64,000 nucleotides of DNA from an uncultured Parafilimonas sp. GTDB lineage: Bacteria > Bacteroidota > Bacteroidia > Chitinophagales > Chitinophagaceae. This document shows positions 260 to 62,716 of the stretch, in pieces. The stretch's first letter is position 1. Every line of letters begins with the position of its first letter. The position numbers and the translations under genes were made by a program. Under the pieces are notes generated by a model. The model worked only from the letters and a program-made list of their open reading frames with translations, made no database searches and had not been told where the DNA came from. The stretch lies in assembly GCA_937892395.1 (NCBI GenBank), contig CALAGJ010000111.1:2039-66038 (forward strand). Reading direction: 5' to 3'.

Positions 260-1171
260 TCAGTTATTATAAAAACTTTCTACATCTTTTTTATAAAACA
301 TACCAATATCAAATCTCATACAATTGGCTGCTCCACATGCTGCACCCATTTTTGCAATATCGTTGTATGAAAATTTTCTTGCCGATGCGGTTACAATGCC
401 TGCCAACAGTGCATCTCCACAACCTACTGTACTAATTACTTCATCTACTTTGTACACAGCATGTGCTACTTGTTTTGCATCATAAAGATATAAACCCTCT
501 TTTCCCGCAGTTAATGCAAGTTGTGTTGTAAACTGTAAAAAGAATTCTTCTATCTGCAAGCCTGTAGGGCAAATATCTTTTGCTTCTTGCTGATTGATAT
601 GAATACCAAATGGATGATGGGAAAGTGCTTGCTGCAGGGCTTCTCCAGCACAATCAATCCATACGGGTATATTATTTTTATTGGCCGCATCTATAAATAT
701 TCCATTAGGATCTATATTGGCTCCTGGAGGCCATGACCCACTTACAACTATATGTGATGCTTTGGATAAATAGGTAGTATATGTGTCAAAAAATTGCTTG
801 TATATTTCATTATTTATTTGAGGTCCATTTTCCAAAAATTCAGTGTGTAATATAGATTCGTTTTTACTCAATACTGCAATGCAATTTCTATTGTCTTCTG
901 CTATATAGACACCATCACAATATACATTCTTCTGTTCACATGCTGCTCTTGCCCATTTGCCTGTACTACCGCCCCAAATGCCCAGTAGTGTTACATTTTC
1001 ACCAAGCTCAGCAATATTTATTGCTACATGTACTCCCTTGCCTCCAGGAAATTTGTGTTGCTGTTTTATTCTATTCAAGTCTCCAAATTTGATGGTGTCC
1101 ATTTCCCAATAAATATCGACGGACGGATTAGGGCAAACTACAAGTATCATACTAAAATGGGATTGCTTCAA
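260..1171 (-). CDS. PfkB-family hexose-phosphate kinase (1-phosphofructokinase / tagatose-6-phosphate kinase, LacC/FruK-like)
   Basis: 303-aa ORF. Has N-terminal VCPNPSVD, GGKGVHVA, and C-terminal GCGDALLAG, all typical of the LacC/FruK branch of PfkB kinases. Overlaps the upstream ORF by 20 nt, suggesting an operon. Confidence 0.85.
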   Translation of the reverse strand: MKQSHFSMILVVCPNPSVDIYWEMDTIKFGDLNRIKQQHKFPGGKGVHVAINIAELGENVTLLGIWGGSTGKWARAACEQKNVYCDGVYIAEDNRNCIAVLSKNESILHTEFLENGPQINNEIYKQFFDTYTTYLSKASHIVVSGSWPPGANIDPNGIFIDAANKNNIPVWIDCAGEALQQALSHHPFGIHINQQEAKDICPTGLQIEEFFLQFTTQLALTAGKEGLYLYDAKQVAHAVYKVDEVISTVGCGDALLAGIVTASARKFSYNDIAKMGAACGAANCMRFDIGMFYKKDVESFYNN

Positions 1172-29302: not shown

Positions 29303-30187
29303 TCAACAAATAGCATCTGCACATGCTACAAATTGCTGTCGATACTGTGTGGGTGATGTACCGATAAATTTTTTAAATGTGCGATTAAAAGAAATTACAT
29401 TTTGAAATCCGGTGTGGTAAGCTATTTCAGATATTCTATAATCTTTGTTTAAAATAAGTTTACATGCTTCTTTGATTCTTATTTCTGTGAGATAGGAATA
29501 GTAAGTTCTATTGGTTTGTTTTTTGAAGTATTTGCAGAAATTAGAAACACTCATATTTACTATTGCAGCTACTTTGCATAATAAAATTTCGTTTGAAAAA
29601 TTTTGCTTTGTGTATTGGTGTATTTTATGAATTCTGCTTCCATTCATTTCAGTATCCAAAAAACTTACTGATTTATCCGATAGTATCACAAGTCCTGAAG
29701 GCTGCTTACTGATATAGTCAATCAATTGAAAAAGATTCAGCAATGCAGCAAATCTATTCGCTCCCTTTAGTTGTGTCATCTTTTGAAAGATGAACTCCTT
29801 TTGCAGACCTGTAATTTGTAAGCTTTGTGCTGCATTCAACAAAAACTTACTAATGTGCAAAAATTCAGGTATTTGATTCAGTGCATTCAAGAGACCTGCA
29901 TGATCAAAAAGCAGGTGAATAAAAAACGGAGGTTCGCTTGATGTAGACTGTGCATCAAACATGTGTGCCTGATTAGCACCTATTACAAAAAGGTCTCCAG
30001 CTTTAAATGGATATTTGGTGTTTTCAATATGCAGTAACCCATGCCCAGATACGATTAAAGTAATTTGTGTTTCTTTATGATAATGATAGGTACTAAATCC
30101 GTAGGAAAAAGAATCATCAAGAATAAAGCAGGTTTGTGCGGCTGTTGTGGTAAGAAATAACTGAGGTGCTTGTATTGGCATGGTCAT
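29303..30187 (-). CDS. AraC-family transcriptional regulator (cupin sensor + HTH)
   Basis: 294 aa. Has an N-terminal cupin-like half. The C-terminal AraC HTH shows VAAIVNMSVSNFCKYFKKQT and IAYHTGFQNVISFNRTFKKFIGTSPTQYR. Confidence 0.88.
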   Translation of the reverse strand: MTMPIQAPQLFLTTTAAQTCFILDDSFSYGFSTYHYHKETQITLIVSGHGLLHIENTKYPFKAGDLFVIGANQAHMFDAQSTSSEPPFFIHLLFDHAGLLNALNQIPEFLHISKFLLNAAQSLQITGLQKEFIFQKMTQLKGANRFAALLNLFQLIDYISKQPSGLVILSDKSVSFLDTEMNGSRIHKIHQYTKQNFSNEILLCKVAAIVNMSVSNFCKYFKKQTNRTYYSYLTEIRIKEACKLILNKDYRISEIAYHTGFQNVISFNRTFKKFIGTSPTQYRQQFVACADAIC

Positions 30188-30283: not shown

Positions 30284-31109
30284 TTAGATTGTTTGCAAAA
30301 AATACAAACATTTGTTAGGAAAAAATATATAAAAATCCACTACAAATGTGAGTATGCTTTTTTCTACAGAACTTTGATTGGGCAAAAAAGATAGCAAACA
30401 TATAATCAGGAATAGGCAGGCAGACAGCAATGCTGAAATAAAACTAACGATTCTTCCGGGTAAATCTTTTATAGGATTTTGTTGGCGAAAAAGTTTTGGC
30501 TGTGTTATACTAATACCCTTTAGCGTGGAGGCAAAGAGTGGACCGGCTACAATCACAGTCGGTATTGCAATGAGTAAGCCATAGAATAAAACTTTGCCGG
30601 GTGAAGCATTGTTTTGGGCACAAAAAGCTATTGGAGATGGTTGAGGTGGCAATAACCCATGAGTAACTGAAAGTGCTGCCAGCATTGGAATGCTGATGAC
30701 GAATGCATGAGTACCAGTTCTATAAATGATAGTGAAAGCGAGTGGCACTAGCAAAACAAAACCCACGTTATAAAATAATGGAATTCCAACTATGAAACCC
30801 TAATCAGCATGCCCCATTGAAGGTATCTTGCACCAAACAAATGAATGAATGCAGTTGAAATACTTTGTGCTGCACCAGATTCTGCAACTAGTTTTCCAAA
30901 CATGGCACCCAAAGTAATGACAACAGCAAGCTCACCCAACATAGCACCAAAACCGGTTTTTATAGAACCTGTAATTTTACCTAATGGAATGCCTAATAAC
31001 AAACCACCTATTACGGACACAATCAAAAACGACAGAAATGGATGCACTTTACCCAAGCAATGAGAATAGGAAGGACAAGCAAAATAACAGTAAGTATCAA
31101 CAACAGCAT
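30284..31109 (-). pseudogene. gntP: decayed GntP-family (gluconate:H+ symporter) permease gene
   Basis: Three frames together reconstruct the N-terminal half of a GntP permease. The pieces are MLLLILTVILLVLPILIAWVK (ATG 31109), then VHPFLSFLIVSVIGG...GSIKTGFGAMLGELAVVITLGAMFGKLVAESGAAQ...YLQWGMLI, then GFIVGIPLFYNVGFVLLVPLAFTI...PMLAALSVTHGLLPPQPSP...LFYGLLIAIPTVIVAGPLF. Frameshifts lie near 31045 and 30800. The C-terminal ~200 aa are absent. Confidence 0.85.
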
Positions 31110-31177
31110 ATTGTCGTCGTATTAGCCAATAGTTCATTAAATTTACTAGAACATTTATCTTAATTTACAAACCATTT

Positions 31178-31885
31178 CTATCTTTTAAATAGCCTTGTTT
31201 CTATTTTCTTAATGATATCATCTCTGTACGATTTGCCCAAAGGAAGTTTAAGTGTACCCATCAGTATTTCATTAGAATCTATAGCATCCACGGCTTGTAC
31301 ATTTACTATATAGGATTTATGAATGCGAAAAAATAAATCGCCAGGGAGTTTTTCTTCAATTCCTTTAAAGGTCAGATATGCTACATACTTTCGAAGGGCT
31401 GTGTGTATCACTACATAATTACTCATACTTTCTATATACTTAATCTCTGCGGTTGTTATTTTTTCCAATTTTTGATTGACCTTAATAAAGAAAAAATCTG
31501 TATTCGCATTGATTACAGTAGGGGATTTTTTTTGAAGAAACTCCTGTGCTTTTAATGCGGCTTTAAAAAATCTGGAGAAGCTAATGGGTTTCAATAAATA
31601 ATCCAATACCTCCAATTCAAAACCTTCTATGGCATATTGTGGATAGGCAGTTGTAAAAATAACTAAAGGAGGATTGGACAATGACTTTAAGAAATCGATG
31701 CCATTTAATTGTGGCATTTGAATATCTAAAAATATTAAGTCAATTGATTCTGTTTTAAGCAGGCTGGCAGCTTCAACCCCATTTTTACATTCTGCCACAA
31801 CAGATAAAAAATCAACTTGTTCTATGTGTTCTATGATACCCTTGCGGGCAATGGGCTCATCATCAATAACAAGGCATTTAATCAT
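31178..31885 (-). CDS. two-component response regulator, LytTR DNA-binding family
   Basis: Has a receiver domain (IKCLVIDDEP...DLIFLDIQMP) and a C-terminal LytTR domain (FFFIKVNQKLEKI...IHKSYIVN). Confidence 0.92.
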   Translation of the reverse strand: MIKCLVIDDEPIARKGIIEHIEQVDFLSVVAECKNGVEAASLLKTESIDLIFLDIQMPQLNGIDFLKSLSNPPLVIFTTAYPQYAIEGFELEVLDYLLKPISFSRFFKAALKAQEFLQKKSPTVINANTDFFFIKVNQKLEKITTAEIKYIESMSNYVVIHTALRKYVAYLTFKGIEEKLPGDLFFRIHKSYIVNVQAVDAIDSNEILMGTLKLPLGKSYRDDIIKKIETRLFKR

Positions 31886-31995
31886 TAAATTTTAATTTAA
31901 GTTTAAGCATTAGTTGATTCTTTAATTAGGAACAAATTAATTAGCAAAAAAGTATTGAAAACAATTCTACTTCATTTGATACTATTCATTAATTT

Positions 31996-33096
31996 TCAGG
32001 ATTGCAAGGAAAATTGATCGGCCGATTCATTCTTTGCAGTATTACTTATTCTAACCGAAGCGTTATACAAACCAATAACTAATATCACCTTAAATCTATT
32101 GTCCTCTTGTTTATTGGTCAATAAATGATTTCCGGGATAGAGTAGCTCCAATCTGCGTTTTAAATTCTTATATCCAATGCCACCACTATTCATCAGTAAT
32201 GCCGTTTTATGGCTTGTATTTTCTGTATTGGTTATTTGCGCTTGCAGTCTTCCTTGTATGTGCTCTAAACGAATATGTATTTCATTTTTTGAAGGCTCTT
32301 TATGATTGGATATATATTTAAAAGCATTCTCAATCAAGGGCTGTATGAGTAAAGGGGCAATATAAGAACCGCTCAATGCTTCGTCAATTTCCAATCGTAT
32401 ATCTGTGCCTTCTTCTAAGCGAAGGCTTTGCATTTGCACATAGTTTTTTATGTACTGCACTTCTCTTTCTATAGCTATTCGGTCATGCACACATTCATAC
32501 AATTGGTAACGCAGCATTTCACTCATTTTTTCAATTGAAGATCTGGCAGGTGCATTGGATTTGTCTATCTGAAAGTATATTGTATTCAACATATTGAACA
32601 GAAAATGCGGATTTATTTGTGCCCTCAAAAAATCAAGTTCTGTGCGCACTTTTTCTTTTTCTAATTTGAATCGGTCAGACATAATTTTAAGACCTCCACC
32701 TATAAAAATACATAACAGATTATTCCATACACCCATATAATAAACGTATAAAATATCCTCCTTTGGAGGAATGACAGATAGCCTGTTATCTACAAAATGA
32801 AGTATGAAGCGGATAAGCAGTATTTGACAGGGTACTAACAATATTAGAAGGAGTAAAAGCCCTGCTATTAATTGAAGATATTTTTTCTGATATAAAAAAC
32901 GGGGTACAAAATAGTATGCCGTTAAGTAAAACGGAATACAGGACGCAAGTGGTACCAATATAGACTGGCCTATATATAATTCATTATTATATGACGTATC
33001 ATAGTCAGTCACATAAAGGAAAAGACCAATCAAACACCAGAAAAAAACATGCAGCAGCTTGTAGTCAAATAACCATTTAGATAAACGAGTATTCAT
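31996..33096 (-). CDS. LytS/YehU-type sensor histidine kinase (membrane, His_kinase + GHKL ATPase)
   Basis: Has four or five N-terminal TM helices. LRAQINPHFLFNMLNTIY is the signature of the LytS-type phospho-acceptor. The C-terminal ATPase shows LIQPLIENAFKY and GGIGYKNLKRRLELLY. The start is set at ATG 33096. Confidence 0.88.
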   Translation of the reverse strand: MNTRLSKWLFDYKLLHVFFWCLIGLFLYVTDYDTSYNNELYIGQSILVPLASCIPFYLTAYYFVPRFLYQKKYLQLIAGLLLLLILLVPCQILLIRFILHFVDNRLSVIPPKEDILYVYYMGVWNNLLCIFIGGGLKIMSDRFKLEKEKVRTELDFLRAQINPHFLFNMLNTIYFQIDKSNAPARSSIEKMSEMLRYQLYECVHDRIAIEREVQYIKNYVQMQSLRLEEGTDIRLEIDEALSGSYIAPLLIQPLIENAFKYISNHKEPSKNEIHIRLEHIQGRLQAQITNTENTSHKTALLMNSGGIGYKNLKRRLELLYPGNHLLTNKQEDNRFKVILVIGLYNASVRISNTAKNESADQFSLQS

Positions 33097-33147
33097 ATTT
33101 CTGAATTGATGCAAACATCCTTCAATTGCATGACAAGGCAATTTTTT

Positions 33148-33199
33148 TTGTCAAGTAAAAACAGTTGTTTGTCAAGTATTTTTTATCACTTGTCAAGTA
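33148..33199 (+). promoter_or_regulatory. three perfect TTGTCAAGTA direct repeats with 21-bp phasing (predicted LytTR operator)
   Basis: Repeats at 33148-33157, 33169-33178 and 33190-33199. They lie in the divergent region between the kinase gene (33096, -) and the PPC-repeat gene (33262, +). Confidence 0.7.
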
Positions 33200-33226
33200 C
33201 AGCAAAAGGGTACAATTTCAGCTATA

Positions 33227-33234
33227 TACATTTG
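33227..33234 (+). promoter_or_regulatory. -7 box TACATTTG for the PPC-repeat gene
   Basis: TAnnTTTG match 27 nt upstream of ATG 33262 and 27 nt downstream of the third direct repeat. Confidence 0.45.
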
Positions 33235-33261
33235 AATTTGATAACAATAAAATCTGTAATT

Positions 33262-36200
33262 ATGCGTAAACATTTACTTTCATTGTTGCTACTTATCATT
33301 GTAAGTAGTAGCACAGCAAGGGCGGCTGAATCAGAGCCCAATGACACATGGAATACTGCGGATGTACTTACCGCAGGAGTTGCTCAAACCGGCACCATTA
33401 CTACATCTTCAGATATTGATTGGTTTAAACTGCGCATCAATCAAGATGGGCAAATTAATTTTTCCGGAGGTGCTACTACGACCGGGTGCCTCACCTTTCA
33501 ATTGTTTGATACATTAGGAACTATTGCCGTAAACGGTACTATCTTTAATTGTGGTGGCATTAGTAATCAGTCCACAAATGGGCTTGCCGCTGGTACTTTT
33601 TATCTGAAGATAATCTCTTCTGACAACAATGTCAATTATTCTTTTACACTCACACTCACAGCTGCTACACCAGCAATTGATACCGAACCCAATAATACTT
33701 TCTCCACTGCTATCACACAAGCACTGAATGGAAGCAACACAGGTCATTTAGGCTACTACTTTAATAATAAAAGAGATAGTATAGACTGGTATAAAATAGT
33801 TACTACTGCCAATGGTGCTTTAAAATTATCTTATACAGGCAATAGCGGCAACTGTGTCTATTTTCAATTGTTCGACAACAATGGTACTACAGCTTTAAAT
33901 GCAGAAGTATTTAATTGCGGAAGTACAAATAATCAGACCACTGATGGGCTTGCCCCAGGCACTTATTATGTAAGAATAAGACAGGGTAGTGGCAATGAAT
34001 TTGTTACTTATACCTTATCCAATAGTTTTATTGCACCTCCGGTGAATACTGACGCAGAGCCCAATAGTACCCGTGCTACAGCCAAAGTAATTCCACTCAA
34101 CGGCTCTGTAAATGGTCATATTGGTTACCGGTCAAACGGTGGATTGAGAGACACTTTAGACTGGTGGAAATTTACCACAAATGTAGCTGGCAAGGTGCAG
34201 ATATTCTATACAGGGAATAGTGGAGATTGTGCCTATTTCCAATTGTTTGACAACAATGCCACAACTGCATTATCTAATGAGGCATTTAACTGTGGCAGCT
34301 CAAATTCTCTTTCAGTCGATGGGCTAAATCCCGGTACCTATTATGTAAGAGTAAGACCTCAAAACAACACAACCAGTTTTGCAACTTACACACTCAAAGA
34401 CACACTCATACTTCCTCCCGTAAGTACTGACCCTGAGTCCAACAACACCGCTGTCCAAGCTGCTACAATAGCACAAAATGGCTCGGTTAATGGACAAATT
34501 GGATATTACTACAACGGTATTAGAGATACTTTGGATTGGTATAAATTGACAACAAATGCAGCAGGTGCTGTGAAGGTATTTTATACAGGCCTCTCCGGTA
34601 GTTGTGCTTACTTCCAGATGTTTGACAACAATACCACTACAGCAGTATCAAACGAAGCGTTTAATTGTGGCAGTACAAATTCTTTTACTGTCGATGGGCT
34701 TAATCCCGGCACCTATTTTATAAGAATAAGACCCGGCGATAATACAAGTCAATATGCTACATACACTTTAAAAGATACACTAATTTTACCGTTGGTGGCC
34801 CCTGATGTAGAACCCAATAATCAGCCAAGCCTTGCTGTTACAAAACTGGTAAATTCAACAGTAACCGGACAAGTAGGTTATTATTACAATGGCGTTAGAG
34901 ACACCGCAGATTGGTATAAAATAAATTTGCCATCCAGCGGCGGACTTCAGCTTCAATATACTGGCAATAGTGGTGGCTGTGCTTATTTTCAACTTTTTGA
35001 TACAGTTATCAATGGCATTCTTGCACCAAGAAATAATGAAGTATTTAACTGCGGAAGCACCAGCACGCAAAATACGGATGGCTTAGCCAATGGTACTTAT
35101 TATGTACGCATACGTCCGGGTACATTAGGTAGCGATATACCTTCTTATACATTAAAAGATACTTTGATTACCCTGCCCCCTGACAATGATAACAAACCAA
35201 ATGACAGACCATTTCAGGGTCAAACACTACCGGCTAACAATACAGTAACGGGCAATATTGGCTATAGTTTTAATGCCATGAGAGATAGTGCTGACTGGGC
35301 TCGTATCAACTACACCGGCTCTGGAAACTTGAACTTACAATTCTCATCACTATCAAGAGCATTTGCAGGGCCAACCTGTTTATATATCAAAGTGTATAGT
35401 GATACGAATGTAGCTCCTATCAATACAACATTCAATTGTGGAAGTACATCAAATATCAATCTTAGCGGGCTTACCCAAGGATATTATTATGTAAAAGTAG
35501 AAACGAGTAATCCTTCTGTCGACTTCGGCCAATACAGTCTTTCTAATTCTTTTGCCGAAGTTAATAAAGCAAGTATAACACTTGTAAGTAGTACACAACC
35601 TACAGATTGCAACCCTACAGGAGTACTAAGGGTGCAGTGTAGCGGAAGCAAAGCACCATATACACTACGCTTATTCCGTTTTGGTGTGTTAGATAGAGTA
35701 GTGCGAATCAACAATACTTCGCCCACAAATATTACAGGCTTATCCAATGGAATATGGACAGGCAGGGTATTTGGAGATGGCGCATCTGATACTGCTTTTG
35801 GTGTATTGGCAGCTGCTATACTTATGCCGGTACCAACGAGTTTAAGCACTACAAATATCACCAGTACACAGGCCAGGCTAAACTTTAGCAACTTTACACC
35901 TTGCATAGATGGCTATGGTATTCAATACAGGAAACTCGGTGACATACCTTGGATATTAGATACTGCCCGCCAGAGTCCATTTACTCTTCGTGGACTTACA
36001 TCGGCTACTACATACCAATGGCGTGTGGCCAGTGCTGATACGGCAAATGGACAAACAGCTGTAAGTGCTTTTTCAGCCATTGCACAGTTTACGACTGCGG
36101 GTTCATTGATGGTGGCGAACGATAGATCCGAAACAGAAAATGAACAAACTGTTGCTGGCTCTATTCAGGTATATCCAAATCCTGCCACACAGTTTTTCTC

Positions 36201-36411
36201 CATTCAATATGCAGGAAAAATAAAAGGAAAAATAGCTTGGACACTTACAGATGTAAATGGCCGTGTAGTACTTTCAAATATGGTAGATGCGGTACAAATC
36301 AGTAGTACCCGCATTTATGTAAACGCATTAGCCAAGGGCATTTATCAATTACAGCTTCGGGGAGCAGATGGAATGATAATAGCCACAGAAAAAGTTATCG
36401 TACAGCGATAG
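33262..36411 (+). CDS. giant exported protein: 6 tandem PPC (pre-peptidase C-terminal)-like domains + Cys-containing Ig-like module + Fn3 + T9SS type-A CTD
   Basis: Signal peptide MRKHLLSLLLLIIVSSSTARA. Six ~122-aa units each carry EPN(D/N)T..A, D.(L/A)DW(Y/F)K, YTGNSG.C.YFQLFDNN, FNCGS and GTYYVRIRP...YTL. These are followed by an Fn3-like segment (TSTQARLNFSN...TTYQWRV) and the CTD (VYPNPATQFFSI...VIVQR). The ORF-track start at 33106 overlaps the divergent kinase gene and is rejected. Confidence 0.85.
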   Translation: MRKHLLSLLLLIIVSSSTARAAESEPNDTWNTADVLTAGVAQTGTITTSSDIDWFKLRINQDGQINFSGGATTTGCLTFQLFDTLGTIAVNGTIFNCGGISNQSTNGLAAGTFYLKIISSDNNVNYSFTLTLTAATPAIDTEPNNTFSTAITQALNGSNTGHLGYYFNNKRDSIDWYKIVTTANGALKLSYTGNSGNCVYFQLFDNNGTTALNAEVFNCGSTNNQTTDGLAPGTYYVRIRQGSGNEFVTYTLSNSFIAPPVNTDAEPNSTRATAKVIPLNGSVNGHIGYRSNGGLRDTLDWWKFTTNVAGKVQIFYTGNSGDCAYFQLFDNNATTALSNEAFNCGSSNSLSVDGLNPGTYYVRVRPQNNTTSFATYTLKDTLILPPVSTDPESNNTAVQAATIAQNGSVNGQIGYYYNGIRDTLDWYKLTTNAAGAVKVFYTGLSGSCAYFQMFDNNTTTAVSNEAFNCGSTNSFTVDGLNPGTYFIRIRPGDNTSQYATYTLKDTLILPLVAPDVEPNNQPSLAVTKLVNSTVTGQVGYYYNGVRDTADWYKINLPSSGGLQLQYTGNSGGCAYFQLFDTVINGILAPRNNEVFNCGSTSTQNTDGLANGTYYVRIRPGTLGSDIPSYTLKDTLITLPPDNDNKPNDRPFQGQTLPANNTVTGNIGYSFNAMRDSADWARINYTGSGNLNLQFSSLSRAFAGPTCLYIKVYSDTNVAPINTTFNCGSTSNINLSGLTQGYYYVKVETSNPSVDFGQYSLSNSFAEVNKASITLVSSTQPTDCNPTGVLRVQCSGSKAPYTLRLFRFGVLDRVVRINNTSPTNITGLSNGIWTGRVFGDGASDTAFGVLAAAILMPVPTSLSTTNITSTQARLNFSNFTPCIDGYGIQYRKLGDIPWILDTARQSPFTLRGLTSATTYQWRVASADTANGQTAVSAFSAIAQFTTAGSLMVANDRSETENEQTVAGSIQVYPNPATQFFSIQYAGKIKGKIAWTLTDVNGRVVLSNMVDAVQISSTRIYVNALAKGIYQLQLRGADGMIIATEKVIVQR
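33328..35553 (+). repeat. intragenic tandem repeat: six ~366-bp units encoding the PPC-like domains
   Basis: Unit boundaries fall at ESEPND, DTEPNN, DAEPNS, DPESNN, DVEPNN and DNKPND. Units 2-5 are also clearly similar at the DNA level (for example TATTT(T/C)CAATTGTT(C/T)GACAACAATG...). Confidence 0.8.
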
Positions 36412-61183: not shown

Positions 61184-62716
61184 TTATTCTTCTTTAGAAA
61201 AATGATAAGCATCATATTCAATGAAGTCATTAATTTTAATATCTATACCTGTTACCTTATGCTGGGCTGTAATAAACTTTACAGGAAATATTCCATAGGC
61301 AGGATTGCTAAAGCTAATTCGCCATTCTTCATTGTCCATGTAATCTAAGTAGCCATACAATCCATCATGGCCTTCAAATTTTATTTTAATTCTTTTGCCA
61401 TCAGGCACTATGGAAATGCTCCCATATAAATTATTGTTATAAGTACCTACATAGGCGGTCATTTCTTCAGGTGGTGTATTACCTTTTATCCTTGATGCCA
61501 TTGCATCAGTAAGCTGATAGATTGCTTCCATATCTGATAAATATTTTGGCAAACTTTTCTTACTCCTGTTTTGATAGGGCTGATTAAAATAAGCATCCAA
61601 AATTTGCAATCGAAGCAGTTCAAAGAAATTCTGATTGTCATTATTTGTAAAGATTGCAATCGCTAAATTCTCCTCTGGTACAAAGCAGGTGTTGGTTACA
61701 AAACCGTCTGCACCACCAGTATGCCAGTAGATCTGGCGGCCTGCATAATCCTGTATGAATACACCAAGTCCATAACCTAAAAAATTTGAAGGAATTGTGG
61801 TTGATTTCTTACTCCTTACAATTGTTTCCATAGCCCTTGTACGCTGCAGTACTTGCCAAGGTAAGATGCTGCGGCCCTCATATCTGCCACTATCCAACTG
61901 CATTTGCAACCATTTTGAAATATCTTTTACACAACTCACTATGCTGGTAGCTGGAGCAAGATTATCAATATTGTCATAAGGCAGTTGTTGCAGGGTTCTA
62001 TAATAACTATTACTGTATGGTACAGCTGCATTGGGCATAGTTTTCATATTGTTTCCAAGCGTATGTGTTTGACTCATGCCCAGTGGTTGGATGATGCTAT
62101 CATACACATATACTTCCCAAGGTATTTTTACAGCGGCCTGTATGATCTCCCCAGCGGTAAGAAAACAACTATTACAATATCCATAGGATTGTCTAAATGA
62201 TGTGGATGGCTGCATCAGTTGCATTTTATTTATAATGCCTGCTCTACTTAGTCCACTATTCCAAAAAGTAAAATCGCCCTGAAATGTTTTGGTGCCTATA
62301 TGATGACTGAGCATGTCTCTGATATTGACCATTACTGTTGAATGCGCATCATACAACTTAAAATCGGGAAAATATTTTGTAATCTTATCATCCAAAGCAA
62401 TTTTTTTATGGTATTCAAGATGGGCCAGGGCAGTACCTGTAAACAATTTACTATTGCTGGCTATCATGAATAATGTATTTTCATCAACAGGTTTTTTTGT
62501 GTCAAGATTTTCTACTCCAAAACCTTTCATCATTACTGTTTTGCCATCTTTAATGATGGCGATGGCAAGACCGGGTATGTGCCAGTCCCTTATACCTTCT
62601 TCAATATAATTATCGATGCTATCTTTTATGAATGAAGGCTGGCTGTGTAGGGTTGTGGTAAAAAAAGAAATGAGAAGAATCAAAAAAAAAATACGTTTCA
62701 TAAAAATTCTTTGCAT
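61184..62716 (-). CDS. exported serine hydrolase of the class-C beta-lactamase / DD-peptidase family with C-terminal DUF3471-like domain
   Basis: Has a signal peptide. The S-x-x-K motif is FMIASNSKLFTG and a Y-x-N-like motif is YCNS. The ~120-aa C-terminal lipocalin-like extension is typical of DUF3471. The ATG at 62701 is an alternative start. Confidence 0.8.
   Translation of the reverse strand: MQRIFMKRIFFLILLISFFTTTLHSQPSFIKDSIDNYIEEGIRDWHIPGLAIAIIKDGKTVMMKGFGVENLDTKKPVDENTLFMIASNSKLFTGTALAHLEYHKKIALDDKITKYFPDFKLYDAHSTVMVNIRDMLSHHIGTKTFQGDFTFWNSGLSRAGIINKMQLMQPSTSFRQSYGYCNSCFLTAGEIIQAAVKIPWEVYVYDSIIQPLGMSQTHTLGNNMKTMPNAAVPYSNSYYRTLQQLPYDNIDNLAPATSIVSCVKDISKWLQMQLDSGRYEGRSILPWQVLQRTRAMETIVRSKKSTTIPSNFLGYGLGVFIQDYAGRQIYWHTGGADGFVTNTCFVPEENLAIAIFTNNDNQNFFELLRLQILDAYFNQPYQNRSKKSLPKYLSDMEAIYQLTDAMASRIKGNTPPEEMTAYVGTYNNNLYGSISIVPDGKRIKIKFEGHDGLYGYLDYMDNEEWRISFSNPAYGIFPVKFITAQHKVTGIDIKINDFIEYDAYHFSKEE

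Follow-up and report, generated by a model that had tools for sequence, protein, structure and literature searches.

Three perfect 10-bp direct repeats, placed between a kinase-regulator operon and a divergent gene for a secreted T9SS cargo protein, are probably the operator of the adjacent REC-LytTR response regulator, which would use them both to autoregulate its own operon and to activate the cargo gene. Judged from sequence, this reading is supported by a footprint conserved in four lineages, by a spacing test on 29 independent loci, and by the specificity of the motif across 624 kb of DNA. In what follows, 'the window' designates the whole 64-kb stretch of DNA that was analysed; its relevant features are collected in Table 1.

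The repeat array and the genes around it

A first-pass annotation of the window had described three perfect 10-bp direct repeats in 21-bp phase, and these were recovered exactly as written, coordinates included. The 10-mer TTGTCAAGTA occurs three times on the + strand, with start-to-start distances of 21 and 21 bp. The array is 52 bp long and lies inside a 165-bp gap (33097-33261) bounded by the kinase ATG at 33096 and the cargo ATG at 33262. An exact search of the 64-kb window gave no further copy of TTGTCAAGTA, and the sole copy with one mismatch is a singleton at 61850 (- strand). Given the base composition, chance would produce equally spaced triples of one 10-mer about 4e-7 times per window for a fixed period, and about 1e-5 times per window if any period from 11 to 40 is accepted. 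Even with the unit cut to 8 nt, no second triple of this kind turned up in the window.

Table 1. Predicted and observed features of the repeat array and its flanking genes (positions in the window)
Feature	Position	Strand	Remarks
Response regulator, 235 aa, REC + LytTR	31178..31885	-	Proposed binder of the repeats; domain hits
Membrane histidine kinase, 366 aa	31996..33096	-	PF06580, 81 bits; NPHFLFN histidine motif; hydrophobic N-terminal segments
Predicted kinase-regulator -7 box, GATGTTTG	33112..33119	-	Consensus match; predicted start site ~33107, 11 nt before the kinase ATG
Imperfect inverted copy, TTGTCATGCA	33127..33136	-	8/10; centre exactly 21 bp from the centre of slot 1
Possible kinase-promoter -33 TTG	33139-33141	-	19 nt upstream of the -7 box
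Slot 1, TTGTCAAGTA	33148..33157	+	Kinase-nearest; 9/10 columns invariant in four lineages
Slot 2, TTGTCAAGTA	33169..33178	+	Central unit; 8/10 columns invariant in four lineages
Slot 3, TTGTCAAGTA	33190..33199	+	Cargo-nearest; 8/10 columns invariant in four lineages
Predicted cargo -7 box, TACATTTG	33227..33234	+	Consensus match; starts 27 bp after repeat 3; predicted start site ~33239
Proposed target: secreted 1049-aa protein, PPC repeats, fn3, T9SS type-A sorting domain	33262..36411	+	Domain hits

Tandem Repeats Finder gave no report at the array because the 11-bp spacers are unrelated to each other, and its silence was dismissed for that reason as evidence against the repeats. The motif is partly palindromic (TTGTCAA versus TTGACAA), which makes any argument from orientation slightly weaker, though the contrast between forward and reverse orientation in the 29 loci is strong (see below). 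A mechanical ORF from a TTG at 33106 crosses the repeats in the cargo frame; the stretch between the array and the cargo ATG is non-coding, since orthologues carry one-base indels there, before a conserved ATG. No Rfam match was found in 32800-33500, and the reading of the region as an RNA element was dropped on this ground.

The gene context that had been given for the array, namely a LytTR regulator, a LytS-like kinase, a 165-bp gap and a gene for a 1049-aa PPC-repeat T9SS cargo protein, was correct throughout. The regulator matches PF00072 with 77 bits and PF04397 with 70.7 bits (cut-off 22.6). Its residues D8, D9, D54 (the phospho-acceptor) and K99 are invariant across 35 homologues, the acidic pocket is present, and its LytTR domain aligns to the AgrA structures 3bs1 and 4xqj (E ~0.005), including the FFRxHxSxxVN motif. 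When compared with the nearest NCBIfam equivalog models, NF008677 and NF010684 (BtsR and LytR), it remained below both equivalog cut-offs, with 142 bits for the 246 needed for BtsR and 103 for the 375 needed for LytR. On these scores the regulator is a member of the LytR/AlgR family without being orthologous to any characterised regulator. Of 8000 scored candidates, 6854 were relatives with E up to 1e-30, and the homologues include proteins named Chitinophagaceae or Ferruginibacter.

Orthologues of the kinase align from residue 1 at the window kinase ATG. The kinase had been called LytS-like; this holds for its PF06580 domain, which is of the LytS/YehU type, but not for the 5TM-LytS sensor domain, for which Pfam gave no hit even at E up to 0.01. 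The cargo protein ends in a Por_Secre_tail domain (residues 970-1048; PF18962 86 bits, TIGR04183 82.5 bits), and a cargo homologue occupies the same divergent position in L005, L017, L020, L025, L028, L029 and L030.

The organisation of the operon itself varies. In the window, a 110-bp non-coding gap (31886-31995) separates the kinase stop from the regulator start; the gap measures 137 bp in L017, and in more distant relatives (for example L025, L028 and L110) the end of the kinase gene runs a few bases into the regulator gene. L020 (785-3001) and L021 (734-2950) have two PF06580 kinase genes in tandem, not one, ahead of the regulator gene. In this lineage, whose regulator is 77% identical to that of the window, the two kinases have 378 and 349 aa and show 66% and 46% identity to the window kinase. 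On the other side of the regulator gene, two consecutive ORFs, 30790-31137 and 30284-30766 (- strand), line up with adjoining portions of the GntP permease profile (positions 21-103 and 117-261 of 440). From these matches, the permease gene, which lies between the regulator gene and an AraC-family gene, looks broken or decaying. L005 and L017 have neither the GntP nor the AraC gene, and L021 retains only a 61-aa GntP fragment. No pheromone or ABC-exporter genes were seen near the window locus.

Conservation of the repeats in close and distant relatives

The set of close relatives was composed of the window and of loci L005, L017 and L020, with regulator identities ranging from 77 to 100%. L005 (regulator 86% identical) was found by an exact-pattern scan of GTDB genomes; L017 (88%) and L020 (77%) were found via the regulator protein. 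A check on orthologues had been proposed by the first-pass annotation, and its outcome was favourable: the repeats and their phase are kept in all four lineages, with L005, L017 and L020 all retaining three units in exact 21-bp register, and the spacers have diverged. The only unit variants encountered are CTGTCAAGTA, TTATCAAGTA, TCGTCAAGAA and TTGTCAAGTG, and the TCAAG core is constant. Over the three slots, 25 of 30 columns are invariant and the mean pairwise identity is 0.90-0.95. The corresponding figures are 6 of 22 columns for the two spacers (mean pairwise identity 0.42 and 0.74) and 3 of 26 columns for the 26 nt that follow slot 3 (0.40). As aligned here, conserved slots alternating with diverged spacers form the pattern expected of protein-binding sites under selection.

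These data also bear on the idea that a 21-bp tandem duplication left the repeats behind as a remnant with no function. An exact period and three identical cores are indeed what a recent duplication gives. Such an origin is nevertheless hardly credible: the spacers are unrelated and Tandem Repeats Finder is silent, the cores are kept while the spacers diverge in four lineages, and the same motif and spacing are present in loci whose regulators are only 45-66% identical to that of the window.

Another conserved segment was observed in the four close lineages. A 31-nt block over the cargo start codon (33249-33279, AAAATCTGTAATT-ATG-CGTAAACATTTACTT) is identical in all of them. Its identity extends to synonymous positions and is common to L020, despite a cargo protein that is only 38-40% identical over the N-terminal ~200 residues, the only part recovered. 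The block gave no convincing RNA structure (-3.5 kcal/mol, almost no covariation) and no Rfam match. It may be a translation-initiation element or a second regulatory element.

For more distant relatives, a metagenome scan with an alignment of regulator homologues provided 80 loci, with regulators 43-63% identical, and protein look-ups added six. Upstream DNA was taken only where the kinase N-terminus could be placed. A weight matrix was derived exclusively from the close relatives (four lineages, 12 sites), and the independent test set consisted of 29 loci with regulators 43-66% identical (all below 70%). At a spacing of 21 and in the orientation of the window, 10 of these 29 loci had a pair scoring at least 12 bits. 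Each of the other spacings from 10 to 33 gave such a pair in 0-2 of the 29 loci, and the reverse orientation in 0-1 of the 29, whatever the spacing. Three further loci, with regulators 64-66% identical, have strong 21-bp pairs. The sites read TCGTCAAGTA-N11-TTGCCAAGAA-N11-TTGCATAAAT in L029, ATGTCAAGTA-N11-TTATCAAGTT-N11-TTATCTAAAT in L031, TCGTCAAGAA-N11-TTGTCAGGTT in L052, and TTGTCAAGTA-N11-TTGTCAAGAA in both L109 and L110. Slot 1 is the best-conserved slot across the wider family, and slot 2 is paired with it at 21 bp in the distant loci.

The motif was also specific in its location. On both strands of the 624 kb of fetched loci, 22 pairs reached at least 14 bits, and 16 of them sit 22-79 nt upstream of the kinase start, pointing away from the kinase. 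In the window, the matrix scan revealed no convincing second operator: apart from the array, 10 bits were reached only by a weak pair at 376-406 (- strand, 11.3 bits) and by the reverse-strand image of the array itself. Loci with as little as about 45% regulator identity still show the motif in this spacing and orientation. Within the loci compared, motif, spacing, orientation and position are properties of the kinase-regulator family and not of the neighbouring genes, because AraC and GntP come and go and the target genes differ by clade.

A transcription factor other than the LytTR regulator might bind the repeats, for instance a global regulator or the AraC-family protein encoded at 29303-30187, about 3 kb from the array. 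Direct repeats recurring about every 21 bp are used by AraC-type regulators too, and an AraC gene is present in L020 as well. However, the full array is kept in L005 and L017, where the fetched DNA has no AraC gene, and the fetched flanking DNA of L025 and L028 yielded no AraC gene call. In addition, the motif pairs found across 624 kb track the kinase-regulator operon, and the lengths of unit and spacer fit the published LytTR pattern. Binding by another factor is thus very improbable, and an AraC operator in particular was rejected since the array persists where no AraC gene is nearby.

The presence of three sites in place of the usual two had been underlined in the first-pass annotation. 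Three units are present, but the layout is not peculiar to the window, only the perfection of all three units is. In distant loci the third slot is usually weaker, roughly TYGTnTAAAA; it matches the core at 5 or more of 10 positions in 6 of 13 loci, for a background frequency of ~0.10. By this measure, layouts with three positions are common in the family, or at any rate in its closer members. The degeneracy of the third slot in distant relatives implies that three-site occupancy may be special to the window clade.

Promoter geometry and the two candidate targets

A sigma-70 promoter scan was set aside as inapplicable to Bacteroidota promoters, and the motifs TAnnTTTG and TAnnTTGY were used instead. 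The flavobacterial sigma-A -7 box is TAnnTTTG at -12 to -5, and TAnnTTGY is a described variant (PMC9723704). The box TACATTTG that had been placed downstream of repeat 3 is present at that position. For the cargo promoter, no -33 TTG was found at the expected place (~33201-33210), nor in any of the four close lineages, and a promoter devoid of a -33 element fits activator dependence. A second -7 box, with a possible -33 element, is predicted on the opposite strand for the kinase-regulator operon (Table 1). Relative to these predicted promoters, slot 3 would cover about -49 to -40 on the cargo side, whose coordinates would put slot 1 at about -91 to -82; on the kinase side, slot 1 would cover about -41 to -50.

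The distances between slots and boxes were then compared over 17 loci. In 9 of them, a TAnnTTTG box (one mismatch allowed) begins 26-27 nt beyond slot 3; no other offset from slot 3 has such a box in more than two loci, and most have it in none or one. Five of the nine loci are outside the window clade and have different target genes. On the kinase side, a box of the form GAnnTTTG or TAnnTTGY (TAAATTGC) is found on the opposite strand, 28-29 nt from slot 1, in 11 of the 17 loci. In the geometry predicted for the window, the array is symmetric between two back-to-back promoters, equally near to that of the kinase-regulator operon and to that of the cargo gene, and autoregulation is therefore at least as well supported as cargo control.

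An imperfect inverted copy of the repeat lying toward the kinase gene had been suggested as a possible means of autoregulation. Such a copy does exist, better placed at 33127-33136 than at 33131-33138 as first proposed, and it lies inside the predicted kinase-promoter spacer. At the same offset among the 17 loci, it matches at 8/10 in the window, L017 and L029 and at 6/10 in L005 and L025, and is absent elsewhere. It may be a fourth site, its role being uncertain. As the 8/10 copy is found in only 3 of 17 loci, autoregulation would probably proceed via repeats 1 and 2 rather than via the inverted copy.

Does the array serve anything else than autoregulation? The divergent cargo gene could be transcribed independently, its adjacency being incidental. 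Nearly all loci have the array at a constant distance from the kinase start, the divergent gene varies by clade, and in L109 and L030 it is more than 250 nt away from the array. L027 has no divergent gene at all, a TonB-dependent receptor gene being located upstream in the same direction; it retains two slots adjoining the kinase promoter, which argues for autoregulation. We nevertheless consider autoregulation as the only function to be unlikely, because the -7 box recurs 26-27 nt after slot 3 in front of unrelated target genes, because the cargo promoter has no -33 element, and because the repeats are oriented towards the cargo gene. Locus L111 also stands against it, with a second pair dedicated to a T9SS gene in the same 26-nt geometry.

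In L111, where the regulator is 64% identical to that of the window, the intergenic region is 574 bp long (L111:3354-3927) and contains two separate pairs in the same orientation. The kinase-side pair, TCGTCAAGAA-N11-TTGTCAAGAA, is 33 nt from the kinase ATG. The second pair, TCGTCAAGAA-N11-TCGTCAAGGA, begins 134 nt ahead of a divergent gene for a 910-aa Por_Secre_tail protein, and a -7-like TCATTTTG is found 26 nt after the third position of this T9SS-side pair. Such a layout, with one pair per promoter, argues that the operon and the T9SS gene are both targets. Compared with it, the compact 165-bp gap of the window looks as though two arrays had fused to give three units.

The preferred reading is thus that of an operator serving two promoters. 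In the mechanism that we infer for it, down to physical binding, cooperativity, the start sites, the sign of the regulation and the kinase signal, a membrane signal would activate the PF06580 kinase, which would lead to phosphorylation of the regulator. The regulator would then bind the TTGTCAAGTA units cooperatively; these would be aligned on one face of the helix, because the 21-bp period corresponds to two helical turns. Seated on outer units that lie around -40 to -50 relative to each promoter, the bound regulator would activate the cargo promoter, which has no -33 element, and also the kinase-regulator operon, resulting in positive autoregulation. It would do so by recruiting or repositioning RNA polymerase at both of these promoters. 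The repeats face the cargo promoter and point away from the kinase promoter, and because of this opposite orientation, a single mode of activation at both promoters is not guaranteed.

Comparison with known LytTR systems and wider occurrence

LytTR sites are described as pairs of 9-11-nt repeats with 11-13 nt between them (PMC4847170). The first-pass annotation had likened the array to a LytTR site, and its 10-nt unit and 11-nt spacer do fit this range. A cognate LytTR regulator gene co-occurs with the array.

The YpdA/YpdB system of E. coli resembles the window by its REC-LytTR regulator, its LytS/YehU-type kinase and its 10-nt direct repeats. The spacer of the YpdB site is 11 nt, which also gives a 21-bp period. 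The two systems differ in other respects: YpdB has two sites, of unrelated motif sequence, whereas the window has three; the target of YpdB is a transporter encoded elsewhere in the genome, whereas that of the window would be the divergent neighbour; and the window regulator is no equivalog, since its score falls short of that required by the BtsR model, built on a related E. coli regulator. In the yhjX promoter, YpdB is reported to bind a direct repeat of the 10-nt motif GGCATTTCAT sequentially and cooperatively (PMC4847170).

The agr P2/P3 region of Staphylococcus aureus offers another likeness, with LytTR direct repeats located between divergent promoters that serve the regulator's own operon and an effector. 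There, however, each promoter has a separate repeat pair, a layout met among the present loci only in the relative L111, and not one compact three-unit array as in the window. The agr units are 9 nt long with spacers of ~12 nt, and their sequence differs from that of the window units. Furthermore, the agr promoters are of the Firmicute sigma-70 type, whereas those of the window are of the Bacteroidota -33/-7 type. AgrA binds the repeats upstream of the divergent P2 and P3, whose core elements are suboptimal (PMC4227749).

ComE, BlpR and PlnC/PlnD function with HPK10-type kinases and peptide signals, in contrast to the PF06580-type kinase of the window. Their sites are composed of two imperfect direct repeats in a register of ~21 bp, and the systems autoregulate. 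As predicted for the window locus, the direct repeats are placed upstream of the regulated promoters (PMC4847170).

The LytTR operator is in itself of a known kind and reveals no new mechanism, and in having one three-unit array for two promoters the locus departs only modestly from the agr arrangement. What is new is the prediction, from sequence, of an operator and of a T9SS cargo target for a Bacteroidota LytTR system; in the literature searched, we found no operator or target for such systems, and no link with T9SS. The proposed link, from a kinase-regulator pair to a PPC-repeat T9SS cargo protein, is specific and cheaply testable. It also yields a consensus site with fixed spacing, orientation and promoter distance, valid down to about 45% regulator identity, and the natural series of loci with one or two arrays bears on how a LytTR oligomer serves two divergent promoters.

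We put forward a broader proposal tentatively, as one that could prove right or wrong with the balance leaning slightly against it. A large family of Bacteroidota PF06580-kinase/LytTR pairs may have one operator code in common, T(T/C)GTCAAG(T/A)A in 21-bp register, lying symmetrically between the operon promoter and a divergently transcribed gene whose product is T9SS-secreted or belongs to the envelope, each outer unit being at about -40 to -50. A single three-unit array, with its central unit shared, would then drive both promoters, where agr and L111 have a repeat pair for each, and the window locus may represent the compact form of this widely conserved module. LytTR response regulators are very numerous in Bacteroidota, and if the proposal is true, sequence would suffice to predict what very many of the uncharacterised systems control.

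An exact search for TTGTCAAGTA-N11-TTGTCAAGTA was carried out on 596 Gb of genomes. It returned 16 loci, among which L005 was the only orthologue. Since roughly 1-5 matches are expected by chance in 596 Gb, this search says little about a wider regulon. Five of the 16 hits are inside ordinary ORFs and six are intergenic in unrelated taxa. In three Aureispira loci, L002, L003 and L014 (uncultured Aureispira MAG), and in L016 (a Tissierellales MAG), the pattern is part of long 21-bp tandem-repeat runs (for example ...GAAGCTTGTCAAGTACTT...), which apparently code for 7-residue repeats and appear unrelated to the operator. The intergenic pairs of the 10-mer in unrelated taxa are those of L006 (230-400) and L009 (7450-7560), both Gammaproteobacteria MAGs, and of L007, L011, L012 and L013. 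The ORF lists suggested no LytTR gene near these six hits. In L006, L009 and L013, extra full or partial copies are found nearby (TTGTCAAGT, ACTTGA), an arrangement that looks iteron- or operator-like.
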